The notes: generated by a model from the sequence alone, not told the origin. Numbered from the stretch's first letter, positions 21,964 through 59,202 are shown. The stretch is 64,000 nt of DNA from Candidatus Omnitrophota bacterium (GCA_016212005.1 JACRHP010000043.1:99-64098), one strand, 5' to 3'. Program-made: numbers and translations.

Positions 21964-22287
21964 ATGGCCGTGATCCATGTAACCGATAGAAATTTTGAAA
22001 CGGAAGTCCTTAAGTCCAACATCCCGGTTTTGGTGGACTTCTGGGCCGAATGGTGCGGGCCGTGCCGCATGATCGCGCCTGTTCTGGAGGAGATCGCCAA
22101 CGAATTGAAAGGCAAGTTGAAGGTGGCGAAAGTCAACGTCGATGAAGCCCAGGAACTGGCCGGACAGTTTAATATCATGTCCATTCCCACTTTACTGGTT
22201 TTCAAAAAAGGCGAGCCCGTCGAACAGATGGTGGGGGCGATGTCCAAGGACCAACTGCTGGCAAAGATTAAACCTCAAATTGTGTAG
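21964..22287 (+). CDS. trxA: Thioredoxin
   Basis: 107 aa with WAEWCGPCRM active site and typical flanks (VLVDFWA..., PTLLVFKKGE). Confidence 0.9.
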   Translation: MAVIHVTDRNFETEVLKSNIPVLVDFWAEWCGPCRMIAPVLEEIANELKGKLKVAKVNVDEAQELAGQFNIMSIPTLLVFKKGEPVEQMVGAMSKDQLLAKIKPQIV

Positions 22288-22350
22288 TCATCAGTCCCCA
22301 GTCCTCAGTCGTCAGATTTGTCTGAAGACTGAAGTTTGATGGCTGACGAC
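22287..22350. repeat. Period-7 tandem-repeat imperfect hairpin (AGTC subfamily)
   Basis: Left arm is tcagtcc ccagtcc tcagtcg tcaga, loop tttg, right arm tctgaag actgaag tttgatg gctgacg. About 22 of 30 arm positions are complementary. It starts at the trxA stop. Confidence 0.6.
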
Positions 22351-22367
22351 TTAAAGGCGTTAATAAC

Positions 22368-22718
22368 ATGTTTATTCAATTCTGCAAATCCAAAATTGCC
22401 CACGCGACGGTGACCGAGGCTGAGCTGCATTACGAGGGCAGCATCACCATCGATGAAGCGCTGCTGAAGGCGGTCGGCCTTATCCCTAGCGAACGGGTCG
22501 AGGTCCTCAATGTTAACAACGGTAACCGTTTTGATACCTACGTCATCGCCGGCAAGGCCGGTTCGGGCGTCATCTGTCTTAACGGCCCGGCGGCCCGCCT
22601 CGGCGTTGTCGGCGACCGCGTGATCATCCTCAGCTACGCCTACATGACGCCGGAAGAAGCCCGAACGGCCCAGACCAAGATCATCCATGTGGACGATAAA
22701 AACAGAATCAAAAAATAG
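22368..22718 (+). CDS. panD: Aspartate 1-decarboxylase
   Basis: KSKIAHATVTEAELHYEGSITID includes the G-S self-processing site. 116 aa. Confidence 0.9.
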   Translation: MFIQFCKSKIAHATVTEAELHYEGSITIDEALLKAVGLIPSERVEVLNVNNGNRFDTYVIAGKAGSGVICLNGPAARLGVVGDRVIILSYAYMTPEEARTAQTKIIHVDDKNRIKK

Positions 22719-22748
22719 CTGTTTTGTCTTGCCCGCGCGATATTGCCT

Positions 22749-23258: not shown

Positions 23259-24175
23259 TGGCGTGTCTCCTCGAGGACAATACCGGTACGGTCGTCGCGC
23301 CGCTGCCCAAGTGGTTCCGTCAGGATATCCCGGACATGGCGAAGATCCGGAAAATGAAGGATTCGTTTCGCCAGGCGGGACTGCACACCGTCTGTGAAAG
23401 CGCCTTGTGTCCGAACCTCGGCCAATGCTGGGGCCGCGGTGTCGCCACATTTATGATCCTGGGTGAGATCTGCACCCGCGCGTGCCGGTTTTGCGGCGTC
23501 AAAACAGGCCGGCCTGCGGGGGTCGATCCGGAGGAACCGCGGCAGGTCGCGCTCGCCGTCCAACAATTAAACCTCCGTTATGTGGTGGTCACCTCGGTCG
23601 CCCGTGATGACTTGGCTGATGAAGGCGCGGGGCAGTTCGTCCAGACGATCCATGCCATTCGTTCCCTGATGCCGCAGACCAGGATCGAGGTTTTGATCCC
23701 GGATTTTTCCAATCAACCGGAGTGTCTTGCGAGGTTGACTGCCGCCCGCCCGGATGTTATCAGCCATAACATGGAAACCGTGCGCCGCTTGTCTCCCGAT
23801 GTCCGTCCGCAAGCGGATTATGAGCGATCGCTGGCGGTTCTGAGGAACCTCAAGAAACTCGCTTCGTCGGCTTTTATCAAATCAGGTTTTATGGTCGGCT
23901 TGGGCGAGACCGATGCGGAAGTCACCGAATTGATGAGCGATCTGGTCGCCGCCGGCTGCGACATGCTCACTATCGGACAGTACCTCGCGCCGGGCCGAAA
24001 AAAACGGTATCTGCGCGTCCAGCGCTTTGTCTCCCCGGAGAAGTTCGCCGATTACAAAACCATCGGCCGGGAACTGGGGCTCAAACACGTCATGAGCGGC
24101 CCCTTGGTGCGCAGTTCTTACATCGCGGAAGAAGGCTACCGCGAGTGTTTTGAGAAAACAGTGAATGGTGAATAG
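23258..24175 (+). CDS. lipA: Lipoyl synthase
   Basis: N-terminal cluster CPNLGQCW and radical SAM CTRACRFCGV. The ATG overlaps the def stop (TAATG). Confidence 0.9.
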   Translation: MACLLEDNTGTVVAPLPKWFRQDIPDMAKIRKMKDSFRQAGLHTVCESALCPNLGQCWGRGVATFMILGEICTRACRFCGVKTGRPAGVDPEEPRQVALAVQQLNLRYVVVTSVARDDLADEGAGQFVQTIHAIRSLMPQTRIEVLIPDFSNQPECLARLTAARPDVISHNMETVRRLSPDVRPQADYERSLAVLRNLKKLASSAFIKSGFMVGLGETDAEVTELMSDLVAAGCDMLTIGQYLAPGRKKRYLRVQRFVSPEKFADYKTIGRELGLKHVMSGPLVRSSYIAEEGYRECFEKTVNGE

Positions 24176-24235
24176 TTAATGGTAAATGGTAAGTAGCTAC
24201 GAAGACTATTTACTATTAACCATGTGCCATTAACC
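24161..24235. repeat. Period-7 tandem-repeat imperfect hairpin (GTNAATG subfamily)
   Basis: Left arm is gtgaatg gtgaata gttaatg gtaaatg gtaagta. Right arm is ctattta ctattaa ccatgtg ccattaa. About 21 of 30 positions are complementary. It spans the lipA stop and the start region of the next gene. Confidence 0.6.
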
Positions 24236-24241
24236 AAGATT

Positions 24242-26446: not shown

Positions 26447-26447
26447 A

Positions 26448-26783
26448 ATGAGAGTCATCAGTCTTCAATCTTTAGTCTTTAGCCTGGTGTTTCTGACGGG
26501 ATGTACCACCACTACAGGCAACGTCGGCAATGTCCAGGGGTACGTGTTCCCGGCGGTGGAGACTAAATGGATCCGTGACGGCGAGCCCATTGAATTTGAG
26601 GGGGAATCGTGGTACCCGGCCGACGGCACCGAGGCATTGCTTGATTCCGAAGTTTATTATCTTGGTGAATATAATGGTGTAAAATTTTTCGTTGATAAAC
26701 TGGACGTGCGGCCGTATGAACGCCTTTATACCAAGTTCGGGAAAAACGAATTCCGGTATTTTAAAAGGAGAAAATCGCCTTGA
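26448..26783 (+). CDS. Lipoprotein, unknown function
   Basis: Lipobox FLTGC after a hydrophobic stretch. It lies between mlaE and mlaF with 1-4 nt junctions. The signal peptide is encoded by a heptad repeat (26455-26486). Confidence 0.45.
   Translation: MRVISLQSLVFSLVFLTGCTTTTGNVGNVQGYVFPAVETKWIRDGEPIEFEGESWYPADGTEALLDSEVYYLGEYNGVKFFVDKLDVRPYERLYTKFGKNEFRYFKRRKSP
26455..26486. repeat. Period-7 tandem repeat (AGTC subfamily), inside the 5' codons of a lipoprotein gene
   Basis: tcatcag tcttcaa tctttag tctttag cctg. It shares gtcatcagtc with the 22287 repeat and tctttagtctttag with the 34868 repeat. Confidence 0.55.
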
Positions 26784-28167: not shown

Positions 28168-28185
28168 CCAACGGGCGCACCTCTT

Positions 28186-29250
28186 ATGGATGAAATAATT
28201 TTGGGGAACATCATGGTGCCGTCGTGGATTATCCTGCCGGCGTTTTTTATCGCCTGGGTCAGCGGCTTATTCGTCTTGAAGAAAATTTTGTTCGGGACGG
28301 TCCGCAAGCTTACCGCCAAGACCCGGACGCGGATCGATGATATCCTGATTTCCGCCGCTGACCTGCCGCTGACGCTTCTTATTTTCGGCAGCGGCGCGGC
28401 GGTGATGGAGCGGCTGATCCCCTACGCCACGCATGCCGGGTTGACCAATGATTTCTTGGTCGCCTTCAAGGCGGTCACCGTCGTCGCCATCGTTCTTTTC
28501 ACGGAACGGGCGCTTACCCGGATTATTTATGAATACGCGGACAAAGTCGAGATCTTGAAAAGCTCCGGGGGTATCGTCCGCGGCTTCATGCGCCTGGCCG
28601 TTATCGGCATCGGCCTGCTGGTCCTGCTGGACAGTTTCGGCGTCTCCGTCACGCCGGTCCTGGCTTCACTGGGGATCGGGTCATTGGCGGTCGCCCTCGC
28701 CCTGCAGCCGACGCTGGAGAATCTCTTCGCGGGGATCCAGATCGTCATTGACAAACCGATCCATGTTGGGCATTTCATCAAGCTGGAATCCGGCGAAGAG
28801 GGTTACGTGCACAAGATCGGATGGCGTTCGACCTGGGTCAGGCTTCTGTCCAATAACATTGTGATCCTGTCGAACAAGAACCTCGTGAATTCGAAAATCA
28901 CCAACTATTATTATCCGGACAAGGAGCTGGCGGTCCTGGTGGAAGTCAGCGTCCACTATCAATCGGACCTGGAGATGGTCGAGCGCGTGACCGTGGAAGA
29001 AGCCAAAAAAGTCATGCGGGAGGTCGCCGGCGGGGTGCCGGTGTTTGAACCGTTTGTCCGTTATCATACGTTTGGGGAATCGGGCGTCGGCTTTACCGTT
29101 ATCCTGCGGGCGAGGGAGTTCACCGATGCGTATCTGATCAAACATGAATTTATCAAACGGCTGCACCAGCGTTTTGCCGGCGAAGGCATCGTTATCCCGT
29201 ATCCGGTCCGCGCGGTCAACTACGAGCAGGAAAAGGCCGCGCGGAAGTAG
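28186..29250 (+). CDS. Small-conductance mechanosensitive channel (MscS family)
   Basis: Three N-terminal TMs, then the pore helix and beta domain: LENLFAGIQIVIDKPIHVGHFIKLESGEEGYVHKIGWRSTWVR. Confidence 0.8.
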   Translation: MDEIILGNIMVPSWIILPAFFIAWVSGLFVLKKILFGTVRKLTAKTRTRIDDILISAADLPLTLLIFGSGAAVMERLIPYATHAGLTNDFLVAFKAVTVVAIVLFTERALTRIIYEYADKVEILKSSGGIVRGFMRLAVIGIGLLVLLDSFGVSVTPVLASLGIGSLAVALALQPTLENLFAGIQIVIDKPIHVGHFIKLESGEEGYVHKIGWRSTWVRLLSNNIVILSNKNLVNSKITNYYYPDKELAVLVEVSVHYQSDLEMVERVTVEEAKKVMREVAGGVPVFEPFVRYHTFGESGVGFTVILRAREFTDAYLIKHEFIKRLHQRFAGEGIVIPYPVRAVNYEQEKAARK

Positions 29251-30254: not shown

Positions 30255-30273
30255 GCGGGGCGGGGGAACGGAT

Positions 30274-34203: not shown

Positions 34204-34761
34204 GTGAACCTCTTCGCCGAAGCGGGGCTGCTTAAAAGGATCAAACGCAGCGGCTGGTGGGTCGCCGGGATCAAGGACCCGGAGAGCGTCGCCGAGCATT
34301 GTTTCCGCTGCGCCGTGATGGCGTATTACATCGCCCATCTGGAGAAGGCGGATGTCCAGAAGGTGCTCATTATGGCGCTTTTTAATGACGTCCATGAGGC
34401 GCGCATCAACGACCTGCACAAGATGGGGCATTTTTATATCGATTTCAAGGAAGCCGAGAGAAAAGTTTTTAAAGACCAGGTCCGGGACCTGGATCCGGGC
34501 GTTTCCACGCAGCTGGGCGCCTTGCGCCGGGAATACGAGGCCCAGCGCACCAAAGAAAGCCTGGTCGCCCGCGACGCGGACATCCTGGAATGCCTGTTGC
34601 AGGCCAAGGAATACCATGACCACGGGTATCACAAGGCGGAAAAATTTTTCAAGACCGCCCCGGACCATCTTAAAACAAAGACGGCGCGCAAGCTCTGGAA
34701 GACGATCCGGACCTGGGACAGCAGCGCCTGGTGGGAAAGGGTCGTTAAGTTTGAACGATAA
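34204..34761 (+). CDS. HD-domain phosphohydrolase (YfbR-like 5'-nucleotidase family)
   Basis: LKRIKRSGW...ESVAEHCFR and NDVHEARINDL (H...HD...D pattern). The start is uncertain: GTG 34204 was chosen to avoid overlap with the upstream gene, and the listed ORF starts at 34123. Confidence 0.65.
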   Translation: MNLFAEAGLLKRIKRSGWWVAGIKDPESVAEHCFRCAVMAYYIAHLEKADVQKVLIMALFNDVHEARINDLHKMGHFYIDFKEAERKVFKDQVRDLDPGVSTQLGALRREYEAQRTKESLVARDADILECLLQAKEYHDHGYHKAEKFFKTAPDHLKTKTARKLWKTIRTWDSSAWWERVVKFER

Positions 34762-34764
34762 AAT

Positions 34765-34894
34765 CAGACTAAAGACCAATGACTAAAGACTAAAGCTCTA
34801 ATAGCGAGTGATGAATGAGGTGTCACAAATATTTTGTTTCAGGTCAATCCAGAAGTTTTTAGTTTTTGGTCTTCAGTCTTTAGTCTTTAGTCTG
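34765..34894. repeat. Split period-7 inverted repeat bracketing the 5' end of the M48 peptidase gene
   Basis: Left arm is cagactaaagaccaatgactaaagactaaagctc (34765-34798). Right arm is ggtcttcagtctttagtctttagtctg (34868-34894), whose reverse complement begins with the identical 12-mer cagactaaagac. The spacer of about 70 nt contains the GTG/ATG start codons. Confidence 0.6.
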
Positions 34895-35644
34895 TTTCTG
34901 CAAGGTTGCGCGACGGTGTATAATCCCGCGACCGGCCACCGGGAGTTCATCATGATCTCCACCGGGGAGGAGGTCGAGATGGGCAAAAGCGTGCATCAGA
35001 GCATCGCCCGGCAGTACAAGTTCCCGGACAGCCCGGCAAAGCTGGAACGGCTCCGGCGCATTGGCCAGCGGCTGGCAAAGGTGTCCGACCGGCAGGATTA
35101 CACGTATAATTTTTATCTGATCGAGGACAAGGAAATGAACGCGTTCACCACCCCCGGCGGCAACGTCTATATGTACACGGGGCTGCTGGACAAATTGACG
35201 AGCGATGACCAGGTCGCTGCCGTCCTGGCGCACGAGATCGGCCATTGCGCGGCCCGGCATACCGTCAAGAAATTCCAGGCGGCGCTCGGCTATGATCTAA
35301 TCAGCCGTATTGTCCTTAGCCAGATCGGCGGGGACCAGGCCAGGGAGATCACCGCCTTGAGCACCAACGCGGTGATGAATATTGTTTTTTCGGGTTACAG
35401 CCGCCAGGACGAATTTGAGGCGGACCGTCTGGGCGTCAAATACGCGTACCTGGCCTGTTACGATCCGCGGGGAAGTGTTGAAACGTTTAAAATACTCGAG
35501 GCCGGTTCCCAGGGGCCTGACGTCCCGCTTTTTTTGCGCAGTCATCCTTATCTCCGGGACCGTATCGGTATGGTTGAAGAGGAGATCAGGTCTGCCGGGC
35601 AGAAATACGGCCCCGCGCCGTGTGGAGGACCTTTGGGCCTGTGA
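34808..35644 (+). CDS. M48-family zinc metallopeptidase, lipoprotein
   Basis: HEIGHCAARH (HExxH), lipobox FLQGC, and downstream E...D ligand region EFEADRLG. GTG at 34808, with ATGs at 34811 and 34814. Confidence 0.75.
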   Translation: MMNEVSQIFCFRSIQKFLVFGLQSLVFSLFLQGCATVYNPATGHREFIMISTGEEVEMGKSVHQSIARQYKFPDSPAKLERLRRIGQRLAKVSDRQDYTYNFYLIEDKEMNAFTTPGGNVYMYTGLLDKLTSDDQVAAVLAHEIGHCAARHTVKKFQAALGYDLISRIVLSQIGGDQAREITALSTNAVMNIVFSGYSRQDEFEADRLGVKYAYLACYDPRGSVETFKILEAGSQGPDVPLFLRSHPYLRDRIGMVEEEIRSAGQKYGPAPCGGPLGL

Positions 35645-38734: not shown

Positions 38735-38797
38735 GTCTGACGCCGAAGCGTGTGCGAGGATTGTCATCGCGGCGGCGAAGACAGGAGGGAAAAAATC

Positions 38798-39148
38798 ATG
38801 ACTAAAGGATCTTTGCCTGTGCGCGGGAATAGATCCTTTGAAGATTTGAAGAAAAGAAACGAACATGGCGCTGAATATTGGAGCGCGAGGGACCTTCAGT
38901 CGCTATTAGGGTACGGGCAGTGGCGGCGTTTCGAGGATGCCATTAAAAGGGCGATCACTTCCTGTAAACAGTCGGGAAATGAACCTGGTCATCACTTTGC
39001 CAACGCCGGCAAACCGATAACGGGCGGGAAGGGGGCGGTGCAGATCGCACAGGACTACCACCGCCCGCGTAAAGCGCGGCATGTTTTCGGGCCATCGTTT
39101 CGCGGCGGATCATTTGGGTCGTTGGGCTGTAAGAGAGAAATGAGATGA
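38798..39148 (+). pseudogene. DinD-like (DNA-damage-inducible protein D) N-terminal fragment
   Basis: RBS AGGAGGG and ATG 38798. FEDLKKRNEHGAEYWSARDLQSLLGYGQWRRFEDAIKRAITSCKQSG...HF parallels E. coli DinD residues about 8-70 as I recall that sequence. Similarity ends after DYH, and the ORF is 116 aa versus about 270 aa for DinD. Confidence 0.55.
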
Positions 39149-41670: not shown

Positions 41671-41688
41671 AAGGAGGGCAGAGGAAGC

Positions 41689-42288: not shown

Positions 42289-42291
42289 CCG

Positions 42292-44685
42292 ATGCTCGAT
42301 TCCGAAACCAAATCCCGTATTGACTCCGCGCGCGACATTCTCGTCGGCAAGGTGCCCGACCCGAAATCGCAGGTGGAGCAGATCACCATCGCGCTGATCT
42401 ACAAGTTCATGGACGACATGGACCGCCAGTCCGAAGAACTCGGCGGCAAGGCGGCGTTCTTTTCCGGCGGCTTCAAGAAGTACCGCTGGGCCAACCTGCT
42501 TGACAAGCGTCTCGGCGGCCATGAACGCCTGATCCTCTATGCCGAAGGCCTCGAGAAGATGAACGTGAACAAGAACATTCCCCAGCTTTTCCGGGACATC
42601 TTCAAGGGCGTGTTCCTGCCTTATCGCGATCCCGAGACGCTCAACCTGTTCTTAAAAGAGATCAACGGCTTCACCTACGACCACAGCGAACGGCTCGGCG
42701 ACGCCTTCGAATACCTGCTGTCCGTTCTCGGTACACAGGGCGACGCCGGGCAATTCCGCACCCCGCGCCATATCATTGATTTCATCGTCGCCGTGGTGGA
42801 CCCGAAGAAGAACGAGACCGTCCTTGACCCTGCCTGCGGCACGGCGGGTTTTCTCATATCGGCATTCAAGCACATTTTGAGGAGTTGCTCCTCAAAACCC
42901 TCACCCCGTTCCCCTCTCCCAGTGGGAGAGGGGCCAGGGGGAGAGGGTGCGGCAACGCGGCTTAGGAGAGGGAGCGAGCACTATCGCGGCGGTTTCGATT
43001 TTGCCGGGTTGAAGGAACGGGCGAGAGAATTCAGGCAAACGCAAACAGACGCGGAAAAGCTGCTTTGGGAATTGCTCCGGGACCGTCAGCTCGGCGGCGC
43101 GAAGTTCCGGCGTCAACACCAGTTCGGGGACTACATCTGTGACTTCTACTGCGCGGACGCGAAGTTGATTGTGGAATGCGATGGTTCCGTTCACAACACA
43201 GATCGGCGAAAAAAGACTGATCAAAAACGTGATGCCTATCTCAAATCCCAGGGTTTGACTGTGCTTCGCCTTGAAAATGCTCAAGTCTTGAGCGACACCG
43301 AAGCCGTTTTGTCCGCAATTTTCGACCAACTCCCCTCTCCCCCTGGGAGAGGGGATGGGGGTGAGGGTATCCCCGATACAGGGGATAGTGGTATCCCCGG
43401 CGAACTGTCTCCAGATGAGCGTGCGCAAATGATGGCGAATTCCCGGGGATATGACATCGCGCCCGACATGGTGCGGCTGTCCCGCGCCAATATGTACCTG
43501 CACGGTTTCCCTAATCCCGTCATCCACGAGTACGACACGCTGACCAGCGAAGAGCGGTGGGACGAGCGGTGCGACGTGATTATGGCCAATCCGCCGTTCA
43601 TGTCGCCGAAAGGCGGCATCCGCCCGCACAACCGGTTTTCAATCAAGGCCAAGCGCAGCGAAGTGCTTTTCGTGGATTACATCGCTGAACATCTCAACCC
43701 GGGCGGCCGCGCCGGTGTTATCGTGCCCGAGGGGATCATCTTCCAGAGCCAAAACGCCTACAAGGCCCTGCGGAAGATGCTCGTAGAGAATTACCTCTGG
43801 GCCGTGGTCAGCTTGCCCGCCGGCGTGTTCAATCCTTATGAGGGCGTCAAGACATCGATCTTGTTCCTCGACAAGTCACTGGCCAGGAAGACGGACACCA
43901 TCGTCTTCTTCAAAATCGAAAACGACGGCTTCGGCCTCGGCGCACAGCGGCGACCGATAGACAAGAACGACCTCCCGCAGGTGAAGGCCGAACTTGACGC
44001 CTACCTTCACGCTCTGCGCAGCCAAAAATTCATAGAACCCTCTCCCTCTGGGAGAGGGCAGGGTGAGGGCTTCCAGCCCACCTGCGGCCTGATCGTTGCG
44101 AAAGAAAAAATCGCCGCGAATGGAGACTACAACCTCAGCGGGGAGAGATATCGGGAGGGGGCAGCGCAGTCCACGCATTTCCCTTGGAGGACGATAGAGT
44201 CCATCGTCGAGACAATCACTCCACCAGCGAAGATTCAGAAGACAGCGTTCGGGCGGGTCGGTCGATTCCCCATCATCGATCAATCGCAAGATGACATTGC
44301 AGGATGGACCGATGATGCGTCCACGTTGATTCGCCCCACCAAACCGCTGGTAATCTTTGGCGATCACACCTGCGCAGTTAAAATCGTTGACACGCCTTTC
44401 GCGCAAGGGGCAGACGGCATCAAGATTCTCCAGACGATAGACGCACTTGATCCGCGATTCCTATTTCACGTCCTTCGATCCAGACCGATAGAGAGCGACG
44501 GCTATCAAAGACACTATTCCAAACTCAAGGAACACCAAATCCCACTGCCGCCGCTGGAGGTGCAGAAGGAGATCGTGGCGGAGATCGAGCATGAGCAGAG
44601 GGGCATAGAAGCTTGCAAGTCGTTGATCGAAAAACATCAGCAAAAAATCAAAGCCCGTATTGCGAAGGTGTGGGGGGAGAAGTGA
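42292..44685 (+). CDS. hsdM: Type I R-M methyltransferase fused to a single-TRD half specificity subunit, interrupted in-frame by a DUF559 domain
   Basis: HsdM motifs FRTPRHI, VLDPACGTAGFL and IMANPPF. A DUF559 block lies between motif I and NPPF (AEKLLWELLRDRQLGGAKFRRQHQFGDYICDFYCADAKLIVECDGSVH). The C-terminal 200 aa resemble one HsdS TRD plus conserved helix (IPLPPLEVQKEIVAEIE). Confidence 0.8.
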   Translation: MLDSETKSRIDSARDILVGKVPDPKSQVEQITIALIYKFMDDMDRQSEELGGKAAFFSGGFKKYRWANLLDKRLGGHERLILYAEGLEKMNVNKNIPQLFRDIFKGVFLPYRDPETLNLFLKEINGFTYDHSERLGDAFEYLLSVLGTQGDAGQFRTPRHIIDFIVAVVDPKKNETVLDPACGTAGFLISAFKHILRSCSSKPSPRSPLPVGEGPGGEGAATRLRRGSEHYRGGFDFAGLKERAREFRQTQTDAEKLLWELLRDRQLGGAKFRRQHQFGDYICDFYCADAKLIVECDGSVHNTDRRKKTDQKRDAYLKSQGLTVLRLENAQVLSDTEAVLSAIFDQLPSPPGRGDGGEGIPDTGDSGIPGELSPDERAQMMANSRGYDIAPDMVRLSRANMYLHGFPNPVIHEYDTLTSEERWDERCDVIMANPPFMSPKGGIRPHNRFSIKAKRSEVLFVDYIAEHLNPGGRAGVIVPEGIIFQSQNAYKALRKMLVENYLWAVVSLPAGVFNPYEGVKTSILFLDKSLARKTDTIVFFKIENDGFGLGAQRRPIDKNDLPQVKAELDAYLHALRSQKFIEPSPSGRGQGEGFQPTCGLIVAKEKIAANGDYNLSGERYREGAAQSTHFPWRTIESIVETITPPAKIQKTAFGRVGRFPIIDQSQDDIAGWTDDASTLIRPTKPLVIFGDHTCAVKIVDTPFAQGADGIKILQTIDALDPRFLFHVLRSRPIESDGYQRHYSKLKEHQIPLPPLEVQKEIVAEIEHEQRGIEACKSLIEKHQQKIKARIAKVWGEK
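42875..43367 (+). mobile_element. DUF559 (Vsr-fold endonuclease) cassette flanked by about 36-nt terminal inverted repeats, inserted in-frame in hsdM
   Basis: Left end is ccctcaccccgttcccctctcccagtgggagagggg (42898-42933). The reverse complement of the right end (43332-43367) is ccctcacccccatcccctctcccagggggagagggg. A perfect palindrome TTTTGAGGAG-ttg-CTCCTCAAAA lies at 42875-42897. The exact limits are uncertain. Confidence 0.5.
44038..44069. repeat. Solo copy of the DUF559-element terminus (in right-end orientation)
   Basis: ccctctccctctgggagagggcagggtgaggg closely matches the right TIR at 43332-43367. It encodes EPSPSGRGQGEGF at the HsdM/HsdS-like junction. Confidence 0.55.
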
Positions 44686-46061
44686 ATCTAGAAGAACAGA
44701 TTAGAGTTATTAATAACCCTCAAGAGTTCGTAGATTTGTGTAATACGATTTTTACCGAGAAATATGGGAATGATTTTCAGATTATTGATGGAACAAGGGC
44801 TGATGATGGAAACGACGGGTATGTTTATTCAGAAAAAAGAATTTTTGCTATTTATTGCCCAGTTAAACCCGAAAACAAAAGAGATGAAGATTTTAAAAAG
44901 AAAATAGGTGGTGACTTAAATAAAGCTAAAGAATTACAAGACACAGGAAAGCTGGAAGTCAAAAAATGGACTTTTATTACTCCGTGCAAGCTTAGCAATG
45001 GAGTGATTTCATATCTGGTCGAGAAAGCGAAAGAATTCAATCTTGAAGCGAATCAGATAGAGTCTGCCTTCTTGGCCGGAGAATTATATAAGCACCAACA
45101 TTTGTTAAGTAAATTCCCTCGCTTGCATATCTCGCAGATAGAGCCGAAATTGGATGAAATTTTGAAAGAGCTAAGGGGGAGCAAAGACATTGTGGAATTG
45201 CCTAATAAACCATATACACAGAAAAATGAGAAGCCAAGCGAAGACCTAAAAAAGGTGTTTAAAATATTAAGTATAGAGCAAGCTGAGAAAAGTAAGTCCG
45301 AATTAAAAATTATATTCTATAAAACGTCAGATAAGATTGCCCAAGTAAATGCAATATTAGGTTTACTAAAATGGTTTAATCCGCTAGAAGATAGCGACGA
45401 AGACATGATTGATTGGTGCGATCAAGGAATGAAAATTGCCGAGACTTTGAAAGACAAAGGACTTCGTGCGATATTTCTTTCTAATAAGGCTTTTTATCTT
45501 TCACAAATTTGGTCCAGAGAAGATATGAATACCGCATATACTCTTAAAGCAGGCAATTTAATAGGCATTCAAGTAATTTCAAGTGAAGAAATACAAAGGA
45601 AAGTGAAGATGTTGCACGATCTGGAAACTCAGTTTTTGAGTGCCTTTAAAGAAGCTTTAGATATTACTATTGAAATCAAAAATGGCTATTTAATAGCGCA
45701 AATATTATTAAACATTGGGCAAGCAGCGGGGGTAAGATACATTCATCTTAATGCCTTGAGGATTGGTCGAGCAGAACAAGAAAAAAGACTATCAAAAGAG
45801 GCATTGCTTCAGGCAAGAAATCTTTATTCAAGCATGGGTTATGAATTAGGCGTTGGTTACGCGCTGCATAACTTAGCTAATCAGCTTTTTATATTTGGAG
45901 AAAAAGAAGAGGCTATGCAATTAAATAAAACTGTTGCCGAGATTGCCAAGAAACACAATGATGAATCTTTATTACAAACGGCATCTTGGTTGAGAGAAAG
46001 TTTAGAAACAGACAGGATTCCTGATTATATTCATGGTGAAAGAAGAGAACGGAAAAGATAA
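44682..46061 (+). CDS. Unknown protein: N-terminal Mrr/PD-(D/E)xK-like region + C-terminal helical-repeat (TPR-like) region
   Basis: GTG 44682 overlaps the hsdM-S stop (GTGA) and follows GGGGGGAGA. The N-terminus FVDLCNTIFTEKYGNDFQIIDGTRADDGNDGYVYSEKRIFAIYCP resembles restriction-endonuclease cores. The C-terminus contains GYELGVGYALHNLANQLFIFGEKEEAMQL. There is no Walker A motif. The gene is AT-rich. Confidence 0.55.
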   Translation: MNLEEQIRVINNPQEFVDLCNTIFTEKYGNDFQIIDGTRADDGNDGYVYSEKRIFAIYCPVKPENKRDEDFKKKIGGDLNKAKELQDTGKLEVKKWTFITPCKLSNGVISYLVEKAKEFNLEANQIESAFLAGELYKHQHLLSKFPRLHISQIEPKLDEILKELRGSKDIVELPNKPYTQKNEKPSEDLKKVFKILSIEQAEKSKSELKIIFYKTSDKIAQVNAILGLLKWFNPLEDSDEDMIDWCDQGMKIAETLKDKGLRAIFLSNKAFYLSQIWSREDMNTAYTLKAGNLIGIQVISSEEIQRKVKMLHDLETQFLSAFKEALDITIEIKNGYLIAQILLNIGQAAGVRYIHLNALRIGRAEQEKRLSKEALLQARNLYSSMGYELGVGYALHNLANQLFIFGEKEEAMQLNKTVAEIAKKHNDESLLQTASWLRESLETDRIPDYIHGERRERKR

Positions 46062-46064
46062 TAG

Positions 46065-46100
46065 TACGAAATACGAAATAACCCGTGAATAACCCGTGAC
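46065..46100. repeat. Tandem direct repeats in the intergenic gap of the AT-rich cassette
   Basis: (tacgaaa)x2 followed by (taacccgtga)x2. The 12-mer cgaaatacgaaa is shared with the hairpin arm at 55797. Confidence 0.5.
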
Positions 46101-46201
46101 AGGCACGAATTTTCACAACGCCACAAATAATTCCTCGAAATTTCTGAGGGGAGAATCAAAGCCCCCTATTGCGAAAGCAGGGCGCCAGCAAATTTTTTCA
46201 T

Positions 46202-46993
46202 ATGCTAATTCAAATCAAAAAAGTCGAAGCCAGGCAGTTCAGAAGAGTATTGAAATCCGGCAGGACAACTCCCTTGCTATTTGAATGCGAGGACGTCGCA
46301 ACTGGCCAGAAAGAGGAGTATGTTGTAAAATTGAAGGGCAGTTTGGACAGGAGAGACCGGGGTTTGATTTGTGAACTGGTCTCCTCGACTATTGCCCGGT
46401 TTATGGGGTTCAATACGCCACCCATAGCCGTAGTCAATATTGATGCTCAAATGGCTTCGCTTATTGATGCAATTCCCAAAGATAAAATAGACTCAAGCAT
46501 TGGCTTGAATTTTGGCAGTAAATTACTTTCCGGAGGCTACTTTAATCTGCCCAACGATTATCCATTGACCAATCATATGGAACAGGCTGCGGCAGAAATC
46601 ATCATATTTGATGCGTTGATTCAGAATTTCGACCGGAGAGCCGGGAAACCGAATATGTTTATTAAGGGGGATGAGATTTATATTTTTGATCATGAACTGG
46701 CATTTTCTTTTCTTGAGCTGATCGGAAAGAGAGACAGTCCTTGGGAACAGGCCGCATTTTCTAGTTGTGTGCGGGGGCACTTTTTTTACAGGCAGTTAAA
46801 GGGGAGGACGTTGAGCTTGGAAAGAATTACGCAGGGCATTAAGAACATGGGCGATGATTTCTTGTTAGATGTCCAGGCGAGTATTCCTGAAGAATGGAAG
46901 GATGGGGAAATTGGTCATATTTTTGATCATTTAAAGGCAATCGTAGAAAACGCCGACCGGTTCATTGAAGGCGTAAGGAGGGAAATGGTATGA
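46202..46993 (+). CDS. HipA-like kinase-fold protein (HipA_2-type, DUF3037-associated)
   Basis: Catalytic-loop-like DALIQNFDRRAGKPNMFI and IFDHELAF. N-terminal TPLLFECED...EEYVVKLKG. ATG at 46202, with an alternative TTG at 46169. No obvious SD. Confidence 0.7.
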   Translation: MLIQIKKVEARQFRRVLKSGRTTPLLFECEDVATGQKEEYVVKLKGSLDRRDRGLICELVSSTIARFMGFNTPPIAVVNIDAQMASLIDAIPKDKIDSSIGLNFGSKLLSGGYFNLPNDYPLTNHMEQAAAEIIIFDALIQNFDRRAGKPNMFIKGDEIYIFDHELAFSFLELIGKRDSPWEQAAFSSCVRGHFFYRQLKGRTLSLERITQGIKNMGDDFLLDVQASIPEEWKDGEIGHIFDHLKAIVENADRFIEGVRREMV

Positions 46994-47847
46994 AAAAGCA
47001 ATATTCGTATACGGTTTTGCGATACATCCATGACATTACTACCGAGGAGTTTATTAACATCGGCGTGGTTTTGTATTCACCGCAGGAGAAATTTTTGAGC
47101 GCCGCGTGCACGAACAAATATGGCCGGTTGTCCAGGATGTTTTTTGATGTTGAAGGAGATCGGTTTAAACAGGTTGTCAAATATATCCAGGATCAAATTA
47201 ATGAGTTGGGCGGCAGAATCCATCAGGAATTAGAATTTGAGAAGCTGCCTGATTCTGTAAACAAGATTGTCGGTAAAATCTTGCCTCCTGACGACGGATC
47301 TTTGCAGTTTTCCGATGCGGGAAAAGGGGTAGCTGAAGATTTACCGGAAACACTGGATGAATTATTTGTGAGGTATGTCGCGAAATATCTGGAGAAATCG
47401 GATTTAAGAAGCAGATCTGATGAAGAGGTTTTGAAATCGTTTAAGAAAGAATTCGGAGAAAAGGGAATCCTGGACGCGTTGAAGCCATTTAAAGTGGAGT
47501 CCGAAGACGATGAACATGAATTCCCCTATGCCTGGAAAAACTCAACATGGCATGTTCTGCAGCCTCTTTCATTTGATTTGGTCGATCCAGAATCTATCAA
47601 AAGAAAAGCACATACTTGGCTGGGTGTGGGCCATAGTCTGCTGCGCCCGGAGGAAGTGAAAAAGAAGATTCGGGAAGGAGTAACATTGAATTTTCTCTTG
47701 GGGGCCCCCAAAGAGCAAAAGCTGTTGAACTATTTTAACAAAGCAAAAAGTATTTTAGACAAGATGCCTTGTGAGCATAAATTTGTCCATGAAGAAGAGG
47801 CGTCGGCTTTTGCTGAAGAAATCAAAAAAGATTTGGGAAGCCATTAA
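46990..47847 (+). CDS. DUF3037 domain protein
   Basis: The N-terminus YSYTVLRYIHDITTEEFINIGVVLYSP is the DUF3037 signature. The ATG overlaps the kinase stop (ATGA at 46990-46993). Confidence 0.75.
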   Translation: MKKQYSYTVLRYIHDITTEEFINIGVVLYSPQEKFLSAACTNKYGRLSRMFFDVEGDRFKQVVKYIQDQINELGGRIHQELEFEKLPDSVNKIVGKILPPDDGSLQFSDAGKGVAEDLPETLDELFVRYVAKYLEKSDLRSRSDEEVLKSFKKEFGEKGILDALKPFKVESEDDEHEFPYAWKNSTWHVLQPLSFDLVDPESIKRKAHTWLGVGHSLLRPEEVKKKIREGVTLNFLLGAPKEQKLLNYFNKAKSILDKMPCEHKFVHEEEASAFAEEIKKDLGSH

Positions 47848-51964: not shown

Positions 51965-52059
51965 TAGGGAGTAATCCGGAAGAAGAATTTATCCTGCAGC
52001 TGCTTGACACAGGGCATCTTAAACCTTGCAATCCGGGGATGATTTGGTAAAATTCTTCC

Positions 52060-52533: not shown

Positions 52534-52538
52534 AAATT

Positions 52539-52958: not shown

Positions 52959-52968
52959 CCGCCGGCCT

Positions 52969-53775: not shown

Positions 53776-53797
53776 TCCGGGATAATGGACAAGCGGC

Positions 53798-55000: not shown

Positions 55001-55793
55001 AATTACCAGCCTGACCAACCCGCGCGTCAAAGAGCTCGTCCGTCTGAGGACGGGAGGGTACCGCAAGAGTTCCGGCTTGACGGTTGTCGACGGGCCTCGT
55101 GAGGTCCTGCGCGCCCTGGAAGGCGGGGTCAAGTTCCGGGAATTTTATCTGTGCCCGGAATTGCTGGGGCCCGGGGAGGAAGAAAAACAGTTAAAGGTAA
55201 GATTGTCCGGCGCGGACGTTCCCGTATTTGAAGTCACCAAAATCGTTTTCGCCAAGATCGCTTACGGAGACCGACAGGAAGGAATATTGGGAATCTGCGA
55301 GATTCCTCACAGATCTTTAACGGGATTTCAGTTGCAATCAAATCCGCTGGTGGTCGTTATTGAGCACGTGGAGAAGCCCGGGAATCTTGGCGCGATCTTG
55401 CGCACGTGCGACGGCGCCGGGGTGGACGGCGTCCTTGTCTGCGACAGCCAGACGGACCTGTACAACCCCAACGTCATCCGCGCGAGCGTGGGGACGATCT
55501 TTACCGTCGCTGCGGTTCAGTGTTCGAACGACGAGGCCCTCCGCTTTTTGAGAAACAAAGGAATCAAGATCTGCACCGCGTCGCCGCAGGCACAAACAAT
55601 TTATACTCAAATGGATTTCTCCGGCCCGGTGGCCGTTGTCTTGGGCAGTGAGCAGGAGGGATTAAGCGATTTTTGGGAGAAGAACGCCGACCGGCTGGTG
55701 AAAATCCCGATGTTTGGGGCCGCGGATTCACTCAACGTTTCCACCTCCGCGGCGATCTTGATTTACGAAGTTGTCAGACAGAGATCAAGATAA
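54987..55793 (+). CDS. SpoU/TrmH-family RNA 2'-O-methyltransferase
   Basis: EKPGNLGAILRTCDGAG, GSEQEGLS and IPMFGAADSLNVSTSAAI. The start overlaps the GH5 stop by 14 nt. Confidence 0.75.
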   Translation: MPRDKITSLTNPRVKELVRLRTGGYRKSSGLTVVDGPREVLRALEGGVKFREFYLCPELLGPGEEEKQLKVRLSGADVPVFEVTKIVFAKIAYGDRQEGILGICEIPHRSLTGFQLQSNPLVVVIEHVEKPGNLGAILRTCDGAGVDGVLVCDSQTDLYNPNVIRASVGTIFTVAAVQCSNDEALRFLRNKGIKICTASPQAQTIYTQMDFSGPVAVVLGSEQEGLSDFWEKNADRLVKIPMFGAADSLNVSTSAAILIYEVVRQRSR

Positions 55794-55796
55794 ACT

Positions 55797-55921
55797 CGAA
55801 ATACGAAACCCGAAATCCGAAACAATACCAAAATTCAAATATTAAAAATTTTAAACAGTTGGTTTAGGTCATTGTAATTTAGAGCTTTAGATTTGTTTCG
55901 TATTGCGTGCTTCGGATTTCG
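55797..55921. repeat. Split period-7 inverted repeat (CGAAA subfamily) between the trmH-like and pseudouridine synthase genes
   Basis: Left arm is cgaaata cgaaacc cgaaatc cgaaaca a (55797-55825). Right arm is ttgtttcg tattgcg tgcttcg gatttcg (55893-55921). The spacer is AT-rich and about 67 nt. Confidence 0.6.
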
Positions 55922-55934
55922 AATTTTTAAATTA

Positions 55935-56738
55935 ATGCAAAATAATTTAATACGGCTGCAGGTTTTTCTGTCCCGCAACGGTGTCTGTTCCCGGCGCAAA
56001 GCCTTGGGCCTGGTCACGGGCGGTCGCGTGAGCGTCAACGGCCGGCCGGTGGTCGAGCCCTCGACACCGGTCGACCCGGCCAAAGACAAGATCTGCGTCG
56101 ACGGCAAGGCCGTCGCGGCCAAGGCGTACACGTACATTCTTTTTAACAAGCCGCAAGGGTGTGTCACGACCCGTGAAGACCGTTTCGCGGAGAAAACGGT
56201 CTTTGATTTGCTGCCGGCGGAATTTCGTCATTTGGTGCCTGTGGGGCGGCTGGACAAAGACACGGAAGGGCTGCTGCTTTTGACCAACGACGGCGACCTG
56301 ACCCACCGCCTGACGCACCCGAGCTTTGGCGTTGACAAGACGTACCGGGTCAAAATGACCGGGACGCTGGAGGCAAAAGACCGGGAGGCGTTGGAAAAAG
56401 GGGTCGTGATCGAGGGCCGGCGCACCGCGCCCGCCCGGGTCCAGGACGTGCGCCGTTCGGGGGGCGGGACGGAATTGACCATCACGATCCACGAAGGGCG
56501 CAAGCGCCAGGTCCGGCTGATGGCCGCGGCCGTCGGTAGAAAAGTCATTTATTTGCAGCGTGTCGCCCAGGGGCCGCTGCGGCTTGGCGGCCTTCAGGCC
56601 GGCCGCTGGAGAGAATTAACGGGAAACGAGATCCAGGGTTTGAGGAAAATTCCGGCCGGCCGCAGGTTCCCGCGGGTTTCCCGCGGGAACAATCCGGGGG
56701 CGGCGGAGGAAAAGAATTCCGGCCGGCAATCCGGGTAA
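55935..56738 (+). CDS. RsuA/RluB-family pseudouridine synthase with S4 domain
   Basis: ATG 55935 (MQNNLIRLQVFLSRNGVCSRRKA, the S4 domain). Catalytic motif VGRLDKDTEGLLLLTNDG. Confidence 0.8.
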   Translation: MQNNLIRLQVFLSRNGVCSRRKALGLVTGGRVSVNGRPVVEPSTPVDPAKDKICVDGKAVAAKAYTYILFNKPQGCVTTREDRFAEKTVFDLLPAEFRHLVPVGRLDKDTEGLLLLTNDGDLTHRLTHPSFGVDKTYRVKMTGTLEAKDREALEKGVVIEGRRTAPARVQDVRRSGGGTELTITIHEGRKRQVRLMAAAVGRKVIYLQRVAQGPLRLGGLQAGRWRELTGNEIQGLRKIPAGRRFPRVSRGNNPGAAEEKNSGRQSG

Positions 56739-56747
56739 GGCAAAAAA

Positions 56748-58691
56748 ATGGTCATTCTTAACAATCTGACAATGGGGTTTTCGCAGCGGACGCTGTTCAA
56801 GGACGTGTCGCTGAGCATTTTCAAGAACGAGAAAATCGGTTTGACCGGGCCCAACGGGGCGGGCAAGACGACCTTGTTCTCGATCATCCGCGGGGAGATG
56901 GAACCCGTCGCCGGCTTTGTGCAGGTCCAGAAAAATATCCACGTCGGGTACCTCCCGCAGGAAGCGCATTTCGCTTCCACGAAGACCGTGATGGAAGAGA
57001 TCACCGAAGGCGACGAGCGCATCGCGGCCCTGATGGAAGAAAAGCGCAAGATCGAAGACGCCGGCAAGGCGGACAGCCCCCGCTACGGCGATGTCGTCGC
57101 GCAGCTCGAAGGGATGGGCATTTACGACCTGGAACACACGGCCGAGAAAATCCTCGTCGGGCTGGGTTTTAAGGAAACGGATTTCCACCGGCCCGTCGCT
57201 GAATTAAGCGGCGGCTGGCAGATGCGCGTGCTCCTGGCCAAATTGCTCACGTGTCCTTTTGACCTGCTGCTCCTGGACGAGCCGACCAACCACCTGGACC
57301 TGGAGGCGACGCTTTGGCTGAAGGATTTCCTGAAAAATTACGACGGGGCGTTTGTCCTGATCTCCCACGACCGCGTCTTGCTCAACGAGGTCACCAATTA
57401 CACGATCATCCTGGAAGGGTCCCGGATGACCAAGCTCCGGGGCAATTACGAGACCTACGAAGAGCAGAAGGGGATCCAGAAAAAGACCCTGGAGAAGCAG
57501 CAGAAGGTCATCGAGAAAAAGCGCGACCAGCTTGAGCGTTTTGCCCAGCGGTTCCACGCGCAGCCCAACCGGGCCTCGGCGGTGCGCAACAAGCGCAAGA
57601 TGCTCGAGCGCCTCGAGCAGGTCGATGTGCCCCAGGAACACAAAAGTATCGGTGAGTTCGAGTTCTCCGGCGTGCGCCAGGGCGGTTACGTCGTCGCCCG
57701 TGCCGGGAAGATCGGCAAGTCTTACGGCGAGCGGCGCGTTTATCAGGACCTGGATCTTGAGATCATCCGAGGCCAGAAAATTTGTCTGGTCGGGCCCAAC
57801 GGCGCGGGTAAATCGACGCTTCTTAAAATGCTCGCCGGCGTCCTGCCGCCGGATGCCGGGACGGTCCAGTACGGCCATGAAGTCAGCGTCGGATATTTTT
57901 CGCAGAAGCGCCTGGATGTGCTCGACCCCAACCGCAATGTCCTGGATGAATTGATGGTCTGCGCGCAGCAGGGGACACCCGCCTTGAAAGCGCGGGGACT
58001 GCTGGGGCTGTTTAATTTTCACGGGGACGACGTGTTCAAGCAGGTCAAGGTCCTCTCCGGCGGGGAAAAAAGCCGGCTTATCCTGGCGAAACTTTTGATC
58101 AACCCGCCCAATTTTATGTGCCTGGATGAGCCCACGACCCACCTGGACGTCGACGGTGTCAAGGCTTTAACGATGGCGTTCCAGGAATTTGGTGGGACAT
58201 TGTGTTTTATCAGCCACGATCTGTATTTTATCAAAGAGATCGCGACAACCATCGTAGAAACGCAGAACGGGCAACTCAAAACGTATCTCGGCGGGCTGGA
58301 TTATTATCTGGAGAAAAGACGCGAGCAAGCCGCGCAGGACCAGCACGTTTCAGCTAAAGCCGACGCGGACCGCAAGAAGAAAGAAAAGTCGGCCAAATCT
58401 CACGATACGGCGATGCCGCCTCACTTGAAGGCACTGCACGACCGGCATCAGCAGGCGCTCAAAAGGGTCAAAGAGATCAAAAACACCATCAAGGAGCTGG
58501 AGCAGGAGCGCAAAGATCTCGAAACTGAAAGCTACATCAAGGGCCGCAGCCTTTCCGAGGCGTTCGGCCGGGACCCGGCAACGCTCAAGGAATACGGCCA
58601 GCGGTTGAAAGCGATCCAGGCGCGGCTGCGTGAGATCGAAAGCACTCTTAAAAAGCTTGAGGAAGAGAAGGAAAGGATTGAGAAAGCGTGA
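56748..58691 (+). CDS. ABC-F family ATPase (translation-associated, Uup/EttA-like)
   Basis: Two ABC cassettes (GPNGAGKTT and GPNGAGKST; LSGGWQMR and LSGGEKSR), no TM domain, and a charged coiled-coil C-terminal extension. Confidence 0.85.
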   Translation: MVILNNLTMGFSQRTLFKDVSLSIFKNEKIGLTGPNGAGKTTLFSIIRGEMEPVAGFVQVQKNIHVGYLPQEAHFASTKTVMEEITEGDERIAALMEEKRKIEDAGKADSPRYGDVVAQLEGMGIYDLEHTAEKILVGLGFKETDFHRPVAELSGGWQMRVLLAKLLTCPFDLLLLDEPTNHLDLEATLWLKDFLKNYDGAFVLISHDRVLLNEVTNYTIILEGSRMTKLRGNYETYEEQKGIQKKTLEKQQKVIEKKRDQLERFAQRFHAQPNRASAVRNKRKMLERLEQVDVPQEHKSIGEFEFSGVRQGGYVVARAGKIGKSYGERRVYQDLDLEIIRGQKICLVGPNGAGKSTLLKMLAGVLPPDAGTVQYGHEVSVGYFSQKRLDVLDPNRNVLDELMVCAQQGTPALKARGLLGLFNFHGDDVFKQVKVLSGGEKSRLILAKLLINPPNFMCLDEPTTHLDVDGVKALTMAFQEFGGTLCFISHDLYFIKEIATTIVETQNGQLKTYLGGLDYYLEKRREQAAQDQHVSAKADADRKKKEKSAKSHDTAMPPHLKALHDRHQQALKRVKEIKNTIKELEQERKDLETESYIKGRSLSEAFGRDPATLKEYGQRLKAIQARLREIESTLKKLEEEKERIEKA

Positions 58692-58710
58692 TATATTAAG
58701 AGTGAAAGTT

Positions 58711-59202
58711 ATGAATAATTTTCTTAAACCAGGAAGTCTCGTACATCGTACATTGTCCATCGTACATCGAAGTACGAAGCACAATCAACGATGGACGTGC
58801 ATTTTGATAATTACATTTTTTTTCGCCGGCTGCGCCAAGATTGCGCACATGGACCAGCTTTTGACGCTTAAGGCTGTTTCCGACGAGCAAACGCAGATGG
58901 GCAAAGAGATCAAGCGCCAGGATGCGAAGTTTGAACGTCTTGTTGCCGCTGTTGAGGAAGGTTTAATTGCTAAGTATAAAAGTCAGAAAAGCGTCTCCGG
59001 GGAATTCGGCCAACCGGTTTATGTCTGGCAGACCGACGATGATGGGCAGTCGCTCGAGGTCTGGGCCTACCGCTACGCCGCGCAATTTTTTGGTTCTCCG
59101 AAAGTTTATCTCTACTGGAACCAGTCGGGAGAGTTGGTCCGGTGGGAATATCAAGGAGGGAAAAATGGGAAAAACGAGCAAGAAGCCGCGCCAAAAATTT
59201 GA
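58711..59202 (+). CDS. Lipoprotein, unknown function
   Basis: ATG 58711. Lipobox FFFAGC. The N-terminal 28 codons are encoded by a heptad repeat (58741-58798), so the true start is uncertain. Confidence 0.45.
   Translation: MNNFLKPGSLVHRTLSIVHRSTKHNQRWTCILIITFFFAGCAKIAHMDQLLTLKAVSDEQTQMGKEIKRQDAKFERLVAAVEEGLIAKYKSQKSVSGEFGQPVYVWQTDDDGQSLEVWAYRYAAQFFGSPKVYLYWNQSGELVRWEYQGGKNGKNEQEAAPKI
58741..58798. repeat. Period-7 tandem repeat (CGTACAT subfamily) with internal stems
   Basis: cgtacat cgtacat tgtccat cgtacat cgaagta cgaagca caatcaa cgatgga cg. GTCCATCGT pairs with ACGATGGAC, and TCGTAC pairs with GTACGA. Confidence 0.55.

Follow-up and report, generated by a model that had tools for sequence, protein, structure and literature searches.

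Period-7 tandem-repeat hairpins at gene junctions in a lineage of Candidatus Omnitrophota

Repeat loci and their flanking genes

This work concerns a family of short tandem repeats with a period of 7 nt, most of them paired into hairpins, that lies at gene ends in a 64,000-nt stretch from Candidatus Omnitrophota (Omnitrophica) (GCA_016212005.1 JACRHP010000043.1:99-64098). This stretch, referred to here as the window, covers nearly all of a 64,866-nt contig from a metagenome-assembled genome, and nearly all of its genes are carried on the plus strand. Seven loci (A to G) are dispersed over 37 kb at gene ends, and a like pattern was found in a comparison set of 13 contigs from close relatives, whose lipoyl synthase (LipA) is 78 to 88% identical or whose ABC-F protein is 83 to 90% identical. 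The genes around the hairpins have housekeeping functions (thioredoxin, PanD, Def, LipA, MlaE/F/D, SpoU methylases, an RluB-like protein, ABC-F, and an M48 peptidase), and at every hairpin both flanking genes are on the plus strand. These period-7 hairpins hold up as real: their number is far above chance, and they keep closely to gene junctions.

Four of the loci, all read on the plus strand, are compact or long hairpins with strong predicted folds. Locus A (22286..22351) is a hairpin of AGTCNTC units, with an arm at 22286-22316, a 4-nt loop, and an inverted arm at 22321-22351; 23 of 31 positions are paired, and the RNA-fold z score is -4.75. It fills the spacer between the thioredoxin and PanD genes, such that the TAG stop of thioredoxin (22285-22287) belongs to the first unit. 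Locus B (24161..24234) is composed of GTGAATG/GTTAATG units in an arm at 24161-24190 and an inverted arm at 24205-24234 (z = -5.26). The final five codons of LipA and its TAG stop come from the first arm (LipA ends at 24175), and the ATG of the next gene lies at 24242. Locus D (34760..34899) is a long hairpin with arms at 34760-34794 and 34865-34899, in which an AGACTAA array (34766-34795) pairs with an AGTCTTT array (34854-34893); an inverted-repeat search gave 33-nt arms at 85%, and the fold has a z score of -5.64. The first array directly follows the stop of an HD-hydrolase gene (34761), the loop of ∼60 to 70 nt contains the ATG (34811) of the M48 peptidase lipoprotein, and the second arm encodes the signal peptide of that protein. 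Locus G (58739..58797) is a hairpin of TCGTACA units with an arm at 58740-58765, a 6-nt loop, and an inverted arm at 58772-58797 (z = -4.12), positioned in frame inside the 5′ end (the signal-peptide n-region) of a lipoprotein open reading frame (ORF) with its ATG at 58711. The order of the arms differs between loci A and D, and each hairpin contains both orientations of its word.

The remaining three loci, also on the plus strand, depart from this design. Locus E (55783..55945 including flanks) is an insertion element of ∼135 nt, whose arms (55792-55839 and 55879-55926) are a CGAAAYN array and its inverse, 48 nt long and 75% complementary, around an AT-rich center; its fold is weak (z = -1.92). 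It is flanked by a duplication of ∼11 to 12 nt (55783-55793 and 55934-55945), the source of which is the old overlap between the SpoU stop and the RluB start. Locus C (26453..26485) is a lone AGTCTTN array with no inverted partner in the window and no fold beyond that of shuffled sequences (z = +0.23); translated, the array is the signal peptide (MRVISLQSLVFSLVFLTGC) of a lipoprotein gene at 26448-26783. Locus F (46065..46099), 4 nt past the stop of an ORF at 44613-46061, is marginal: 2.3 copies of TACGAAA are followed by two copies of the 11-mer AATAACCCGTG, and there is neither a hairpin nor a fold beyond shuffles (z = -0.15). The original prediction, made from the DNA alone, had listed all seven as heptamer loci that usually pair with an inverted set. 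Pairing was recovered at five of them but not at 26455-26486 or 46065-46100, and the latter qualifies as a heptamer locus only over its first 2.3 units. Three exact seeds quoted as common to pairs of loci are present as given.

Period-7 arrays exceed chance expectation and abut stop codons

Period-7 arrays were called by Tandem Repeats Finder at 22286-22315 and 24161-24190 (each 4.3 copies, 82% matches), 26460-26482 (3.3 copies, 81%), 34766-34795 (4.3 copies, 82%), 34854-34893 (5.7 copies, 84%), 46065-46080 (2.3 copies, 100%), 55792-55823 (4.6 copies, 76%), and 58739-58769 (4.4 copies, 83%). Locus F aside, the arrays are degenerate, at 76 to 84% matches. Six loci hold 3.3 to 5.7 tandem copies, above the minimum of about three by which heptanucleotide repeats are recognized, and are commoner than in shuffled sequence. 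A separate array scan of the window returned 7 period-7 arrays, compared to a mean of 0.07 (maximum, 1) in 30 block-wise dinucleotide shuffles, which bears out the proposal of a dispersed family beyond what composition would yield. With the same scan, periods 4, 5, 8, 10, 11, and 13 gave 0 to 1 arrays and periods 12, 14, and 15 gave 4, 4, and 2. At least five unrelated heptamer words occur within the 37 kb of this one genome, with units that combine 4 to 6 conserved positions and 1 to 3 free ones (e.g., AGTC[N]TC).

The preference for gene boundaries that had been proposed is equally clear. Measured from the end of a stop codon, six arrays begin between -14 and +7 nt and that of locus G begins at +48. 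Although the zone from -15 to +50 makes up 7% of the region, all seven arrays lie inside it (P ∼8e-9).

Pairing of the arms and the case for an RNA function

An inverted partner array is present at five of the seven loci (A, B, D, E, and G), with 74 to 83% Watson-Crick complementarity over 26 to 48 nt, and these hairpins include the strongest local inverted repeats of the 46-kb region searched. Such structures could be selected RNA elements of polycistronic mRNAs, comparable to repetitive extragenic palindromic (REP) sequences, that protect transcripts from 3′ exonucleases, provide sites for RNase III or other processing, or damp downstream translation initiation; RNA-level regulators or insulators were among the roles initially suggested. 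Several observations favor a role of this kind. Given the orientation of the flanking genes, every hairpin would be transcribed, and four of those in the window (A, B, D, and G) fold with z scores of -4.1 to -5.6 (E being weak at -1.9). The downstream genes often encode membrane proteins or lipoproteins, and some of their start codons fall within a hairpin, as does that of the M48 peptidase in the loop of hairpin D. Finally, a hairpin is present at site A in 8/9 close relatives and at site G in 4/5, even though the word changes.

The pairing itself, however, does not bear the marks of selection on an RNA. Complementarity is 77% in the native register and 67 to 68% after a shift of the arms by 7 or 14 nt, compared to 20 to 33% off register, and the small excess of the native register is of the size that picking the best of five registers would produce. 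Across 20 hairpins, some of which are orthologous, 27 G·U pairs stand against 35 A·C and 77 transversion-type mismatches; as G·U does not exceed A·C, there is no sense-strand RNA signature. Mismatches fall mostly at the variable position of the unit (e.g., the N of AGTC[N]TC), which is thus usually unpaired. Covariation at site A was not significant, with 68 of 500 shuffles scoring as high (4 sequences), so the compensatory pairing beyond chance that the original prediction had looked to did not emerge. Pairing of the arms follows from their makeup, two inverted arrays of the same word, and not from upkeep of single base pairs. In addition, hairpins are missing from sister lineages with the same gene order. 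The recommended Rfam search gave no gathering-level match in the window, the only hits being sub-threshold miRNA-precursor look-alikes at B and E. We therefore consider a selected, REP-like RNA element unlikely, at about one chance in five; an RNA-level function is possible but unsupported, and the locus reveals no new regulatory RNA.

The classes that had been set aside at the outset stay excluded. None of the hairpins was called terminator-like, and terminator-like counts did not exceed those of shuffles; an intrinsic terminator, with its GC-rich stem, short loop, and U-tract, is accordingly rejected. A CRISPR reading fails on the defining features of those arrays, and the arms, being direct arrays, are not classic REP sequences.

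Repeat DNA within coding sequence

At several junctions, the repeats have become part of the adjoining proteins. The C terminus of LipA differs in contig L003, which is without element B. At locus C, the frame is open and the lipobox is kept in every relative with cleanly reading sequence, while a more distant ortholog of the lipoprotein (contig L009) has a signal peptide without the repeat. Hairpin G is in frame in the lipoprotein n-region in the window, L168, and L170, and L169 has a short signal peptide and no hairpin; here, too, the reading frame is open in every relative that reads cleanly. Of the seven repeat loci, three (26448-26510, 34811-34915, and 58711-58835) coincide with the 5′ end of a gene for a lipoprotein with a lipobox cysteine. 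The repeat-derived codons in these 5′ ends alternate AGT and TCT for serine and use TTA for leucine, and automatic gene callers place the starts of repeat-bearing lipoprotein genes inconsistently in the relatives.

Because 7 is not a multiple of three, gain or loss of a unit could put the downstream lipoprotein genes into or out of frame, making the arrays phase-variable (contingency) repeats. Arrays C, D (arm 2), and G do lie in 5′ coding regions of lipoprotein genes, and unit number differs between strains at site A. Nevertheless, degenerate tracts with 76 to 84% matches are a poor substrate for high-rate slippage, the C and G frames are open wherever the sequence reads cleanly, and most arrays are intergenic and paired as hairpins. 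Phase variation is thus highly improbable, and assignment to the contingency simple-sequence repeats is rejected.

Turnover among close relatives

Comparison of orthologous junctions showed that the elements change quickly in word, length, and presence. The junction between the thioredoxin and PanD genes (site A) carries AGTCNTC hairpins in the window, L003, L161, and L165; CGTACAT hairpins, the word of locus G of the window, in L164, L166, and L167; a purine-rich hairpin in L001; and none in L163, L004, L009, and L014. Arms at this site consist of 3, 4, or 5 units, with whole-unit differences between strains, and the word types are not monophyletic on a neighbor-joining tree of the PanD-LipA region. 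In L166 (7422-7459), the loop of the CGTACAT hairpin contains AGTCATCAGA, a fragment of the AGTCNTC word, which may be a remnant of a nested or replaced element.

Arms and whole hairpins also come and go at other sites. The site B hairpin is complete in L002, reduced to arm 1 in L001, and absent in L003. A CGTACAT hairpin occupies site G in the window, L168, and L170, with none in L169 and another word in L171. In L161, locus C has gained an inverted arm upstream of the older array. At locus D, the basal contig L163 has only the arm-2-like coding sequence, the window and L001 have both arms, and in L001 the word has changed in both arms together. Variation in copy number (3 to 5 units at site A) and in presence (sites B, E, and G) among close relatives is therefore as known for heptanucleotide repeats, and the whole-unit differences and the arms added at C and D fit the slippage-and-fold-back origin that had been among the initial proposals.

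Locus E differs in that the element recurs as a unit. E-type elements are ∼130 to 145 nt long, with CGAAAYN arms and an AT-rich center, and nhmmer retrieved only three copies in the ∼2.2 Mb searched: one in the window and two in L002 at other, unrelated junctions, all ∼75% identical. Each L002 copy lies precisely at a stop/start junction whose two codons are contiguous (TAG|ATG) in the window, L001, L161, and L165. The E site of the window is empty in L168 to L171, and both flanks in the window align to one segment of ∼11 to 12 nt of the empty site in L170 (GATGCAAAGTAA), so that a duplication borders this insertion. No clear duplication is seen at the two L002 insertions.

These insertions raise the possibility that the hairpins are distinct miniature mobile elements with self-expanding heptamer-array arms, which some enzyme would copy to stop/start junctions with a target duplication of ∼11 to 12 nt. 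Such elements would have settled repeatedly at the same junctions, and their domestication would be routine, with products such as C-terminal tails and the n- and h-regions of signal peptides in lipoproteins. In that case, the excess of period-7 arrays across phyla would reflect a shared active mechanism and not passive polymerase slippage. No RAYT (REP-associated tyrosine transposase)/Y1 or other transposase matched among the 40 window ORFs scanned against Pfam, which are a subset of those in the window, and no autonomous partner of the E-type element was seen in the ∼2.2 Mb of contigs searched. We hold this account to be doubtful, with odds of roughly one in five.

Distribution across lineages

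The repeats had been proposed to be genome specific, which does not hold. Copies of the same words, both orthologous and nonorthologous, occur in at least 12 related Omnitrophota contigs, and in unrelated phyla, too, no other non-coding tandem period is as strongly enriched as 7. The close clade has 25 period-7 arrays in 195 kb, distant Omnitrophota have 7 in 156 kb, other phyla have 27 in 1.08 Mb, and the metagenome loci have 68 in 754 kb, with 7 as the leading tandem period in all four sets. The metagenome loci were gathered in a scan with the MlaD-like protein that gave metagenome relatives at <40% identity only, and they were used just as an extra sample for period statistics. In the close clade, 18/25 arrays (72%) have an inverted partner, compared to 7/27 elsewhere and 3/75 (∼4%) of random segments.

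Two further features of these samples were observed. In the metagenome loci (L081 to L160), period-8 arrays (35) are raised beside those of period 7 (68), unlike in the genome sets. Unrelated genomes of Bacteroidales and Phycisphaerae, in which period 7 is also the top tandem period, contain long heptamer arrays (L057, 9785-9969; L078, 4820-4888; L054, 4746-6462; L022, 12216-17120). These include an inverted pair of telomere-like GGGTTAA/AACCCNT units in up to 12 copies, ten CGAACTA units, and repeated ATTGACG/ATTGAAC arrays.

A strict 7-nt period common to several phyla could also point to a binding platform, that is, to an oligomeric protein with one contact site for every 7 nt of DNA, single-stranded DNA, or RNA, with hairpin formation competing against binding. 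Candidates would be a Csp-, S1-, or CsrA-like factor, as proposed for the TAACTGA repeats of Beggiatoa, or a ring protein of the HutP type. HutP binds triplets spaced by 4 nt. The division of each unit into 4 to 6 conserved and 1 to 3 free positions would suit such a protein, as would the limited number of words, which recur in different genomes and at unrelated sites, and a platform has already been proposed for another heptamer repeat (PMC4679880). On the other hand, at least five unrelated words in 37 kb would require several proteins or very loose specificity, both orientations are present at each hairpin with an arm order that differs between A and D, arrays are tolerated inside coding sequence, and no candidate protein was identified. 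We judge a binding platform to be improbable, at clearly longer odds than a REP-like RNA role.

Genomic surroundings of the repeat loci

Two blocks of low GC content with an island-like look, at 1-18000 and ∼44 to 48 kb, interrupt the window. The array scan found no period-7 arrays in the first block, and the second holds only the marginal array of locus F. Block 1-18000 has a GC content of 42 to 45%, compared to 54 to 57% in the core, and encodes an ArsM-like methyltransferase, a PHO4 transporter, a DUF3641 radical-SAM protein, a transglutaminase, GalT/HIT, a pyridine nucleotide-disulfide oxidoreductase, DsbD, and a DUF255 thioredoxin. It is without synteny in the relatives, in which the thioredoxin gene is preceded by Rrf2 and ABC transporter genes, and it is probably an acquired island. 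A phage or plasmid origin was rejected, there being 0 phage matches and plasmid matches at the gene level only, and no tRNA was found in the window.

The second block falls within a type I restriction-modification and defense island (38750-47847), in which GC content drops to 42% at 44 to 48 kb. This island comprises HsdR (39145-41670), an ORF6N protein (41689-42288), HsdM with a DUF559 endonuclease-like insert (42292-44685), the ORF at 44613-46061, which has no Pfam match and is possibly HsdS, a HipA_2 kinase (46169-46993), and a DUF3037 protein (46990-47847). Within the ORF6N gene, a near-palindrome, GAGGTCACAAT..TGTGACCTC, is present twice, at ∼41888-41909 and 41934-41954 (within 41886-41957); its inverted arms are 24 nt long and 83% complementary, and it has no heptamer periodicity.

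Differences in gene content were seen elsewhere among the relatives. A gene for an MscS-like mechanosensitive channel (28186-29250 in the window) is present in the window, L002, L161, and L165 and is not at that position in L001 or L163, a gene-level indel amid otherwise conserved synteny. In L169, type I-C cas genes (Cas3, Cas5d, and Csd1) lie at 7720-12115, downstream of an HhH-GPD glycosylase gene; relatives with sequence at that position (L168 and L170) carry unrelated genes.

Proposed origin and significance

The heptanucleotide repeats of cyanobacteria are named STRR (short tandemly repeated repetitive) sequences. We read the Omnitrophota loci as STRR-like heptanucleotide palindromic elements of this lineage, namely, as repeat DNA that evolves fast, is selfish or nearly neutral, and is generated by slippage, inverted duplication, and insertion, and we give this reading a probability of about 0.6. 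Under it, arrays would grow and shrink in 7-nt steps by slipped-strand mispairing; the unit differences are observed, and slippage is what we infer from them. An inverted copy would then be made beside an existing array, probably by fold-back or template switching, an enzymology suggested by the later gain of arms at older arrays. Whole hairpin elements would further be copied into new gene junctions, as seen in the insertions, one of which has a flanking duplication. Copies at gene ends would be the only ones to survive, being least disruptive there: arrays rich in TAG and TAA could give the upstream gene new stop codons, and T-rich or basic-coding frames could be absorbed into the tolerant signal-peptide regions of the downstream gene. 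Co-directional transcripts would fold into imperfect hairpins with a mismatch about every 7 nt, and consequences for mRNA stability or translation, if any, would be incidental and not the reason for the elements.

Several points weigh against this explanation. The hairpins are very stable (z down to -5.6) and persist at most A and G sites despite sequence change, and they could be selected there for their own sake. The comparison of G·U and A·C counts, which argues otherwise, draws on the 20 partly orthologous hairpins given above. A transposase or other mobilizing enzyme was not identified among the 40 window ORFs scanned, and the flanking duplication is documented at one insertion only. Finally, the sample amounts to ∼64 kb of this genome and ∼0.24 Mb of close relatives.

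The value of the Omnitrophota elements lies in their syntenic relatives, which let the life cycle of such repeats be read through unit changes, gain of a partner array, insertion and loss at junctions, and absorption into signal peptides and C termini. The lineage is therefore useful for comparing models of slippage, template switching, and transposition. It also carries a warning for annotation, in that repeat DNA often provides the start and stop codons found at these junctions.

Comparison with known repeat systems

Heptanucleotide repeats in cyanobacteria have reportedly been known since 1990, when Mazel and coworkers are said to have described the STRR words CCCCAGT, TTGGTCA, and CAACAGT in heterocystous species. 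The window unit AGTCCCC is, as we take it, a rotation of STRR1 (CCCCAGT), and the pattern AGTCNNC is presumably compatible with STRR3 (CAACAGT). The Omnitrophota elements differ from STRR sequences in their host, in the coexistence of several unrelated words, in their short, degenerate arrays, and in the 72% of arrays that lie in hairpin-forming inverted pairs. They are not STRR sequences in the strict sense, as the host is an Omnitrophota, only single units match rotated STRR words, and the consensus words differ. A universal AGTC/ACTG core tying the Omnitrophota words to STRR1, STRR3, and TAACTGA was likewise rejected. The AGTC core is specific to the close clade (18/25 arrays, compared to 0/27 in other phyla and 2/68 in metagenome loci), and we treat its likeness to STRR words as coincidence or as a clade-specific word; common descent is not supported.

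In later accounts of the work of Mrazek (2007, via PMC4679880 and PMC4692102), heptanucleotide repeats exceed all other classes of long simple-sequence repeats in abundance in most of the prokaryotic genomes surveyed, with polymerase slippage as the proposed cause. Their over-representation in prokaryotes has thus been known since 2007, and Omnitrophota adds an uncultivated phylum, for which a literature search that included its name returned no report of such repeats. With this general class the window loci share short 7-nt tandem arrays that are dispersed and mostly extragenic, slippage as a proposed origin, and indels in 7-nt steps and presence or absence between close relatives, both described for other heptamer repeats (PMC4679880). 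Occasional inverted pairs and variation between species are on record as well (PMC4692102).

There is a likeness in form to the GGGAATC repeats of Xanthomonas and the GGGGAYT repeats of Nostoc (Rehm et al. 2015, PMC4692102), which are intergenic, heterogeneous arrays of conserved and variable positions, mostly of about four units, with some inverted pairs able to form stem-loops. Many of these lie between the same genes in related species with extensive variation in length and sequence. They are, however, G-rich, potentially quadruplex forming, and of one word per genus, whereas the Omnitrophota words lack G-tracts, several coexist, and inverted pairing is the rule. The TAACTGA repeats of Beggiatoaceae, Cyanobacteria, and Bacteroidetes (MacGregor 2015, PMC4679880) are also direct heptamer repeats, in 2 to 6 copies, tightly at gene boundaries, and their tandem reverse complement, AGTTATC, is one base from the AGTCATC unit of loci A and C. 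TAACTGA sets nevertheless are nearly all direct (169 direct sets and one “indirect repeat” in the BOGUAY genome) and lie just upstream of start codons in one orientation, while the Omnitrophota arrays abut stops and are mostly inverted pairs.

Mobile palindromic elements offer a second comparison. Like REPINs, which are REP doublets mobilized by RAYT (Bertels and Rainey 2011, PMC3116915), and like miniature inverted-repeat transposable elements (MITEs), the Omnitrophota hairpins consist of two inverted arms and a spacer that fold into one long hairpin of ∼60 to 140 nt, within the size and terminal-inverted-repeat range of MITEs. They are also extragenic, dispersed, and non-autonomous, and they insert into or beside existing elements. 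The E-type element is MITE-like, with copies at unrelated junctions and one insertion with a flanking duplication, but its three ∼75% identical copies in the ∼2.2 Mb searched fall short of the many near-identical copies and autonomous relative that define MITEs, and copies of most other types share a word only, with no full-length consensus. The arms of REPINs are conserved short palindromes tied to a RAYT gene, whereas the Omnitrophota arms are non-palindromic and pair in several registers. Membership in REP sensu stricto was rejected, as the arms are direct heptamer arrays, minimum-free-energy folds pair arm with arm without a stem-loop inside either, and the words vary by locus. In all, Omnitrophota is a new lineage for an already known, poorly understood class of heptanucleotide repeats.

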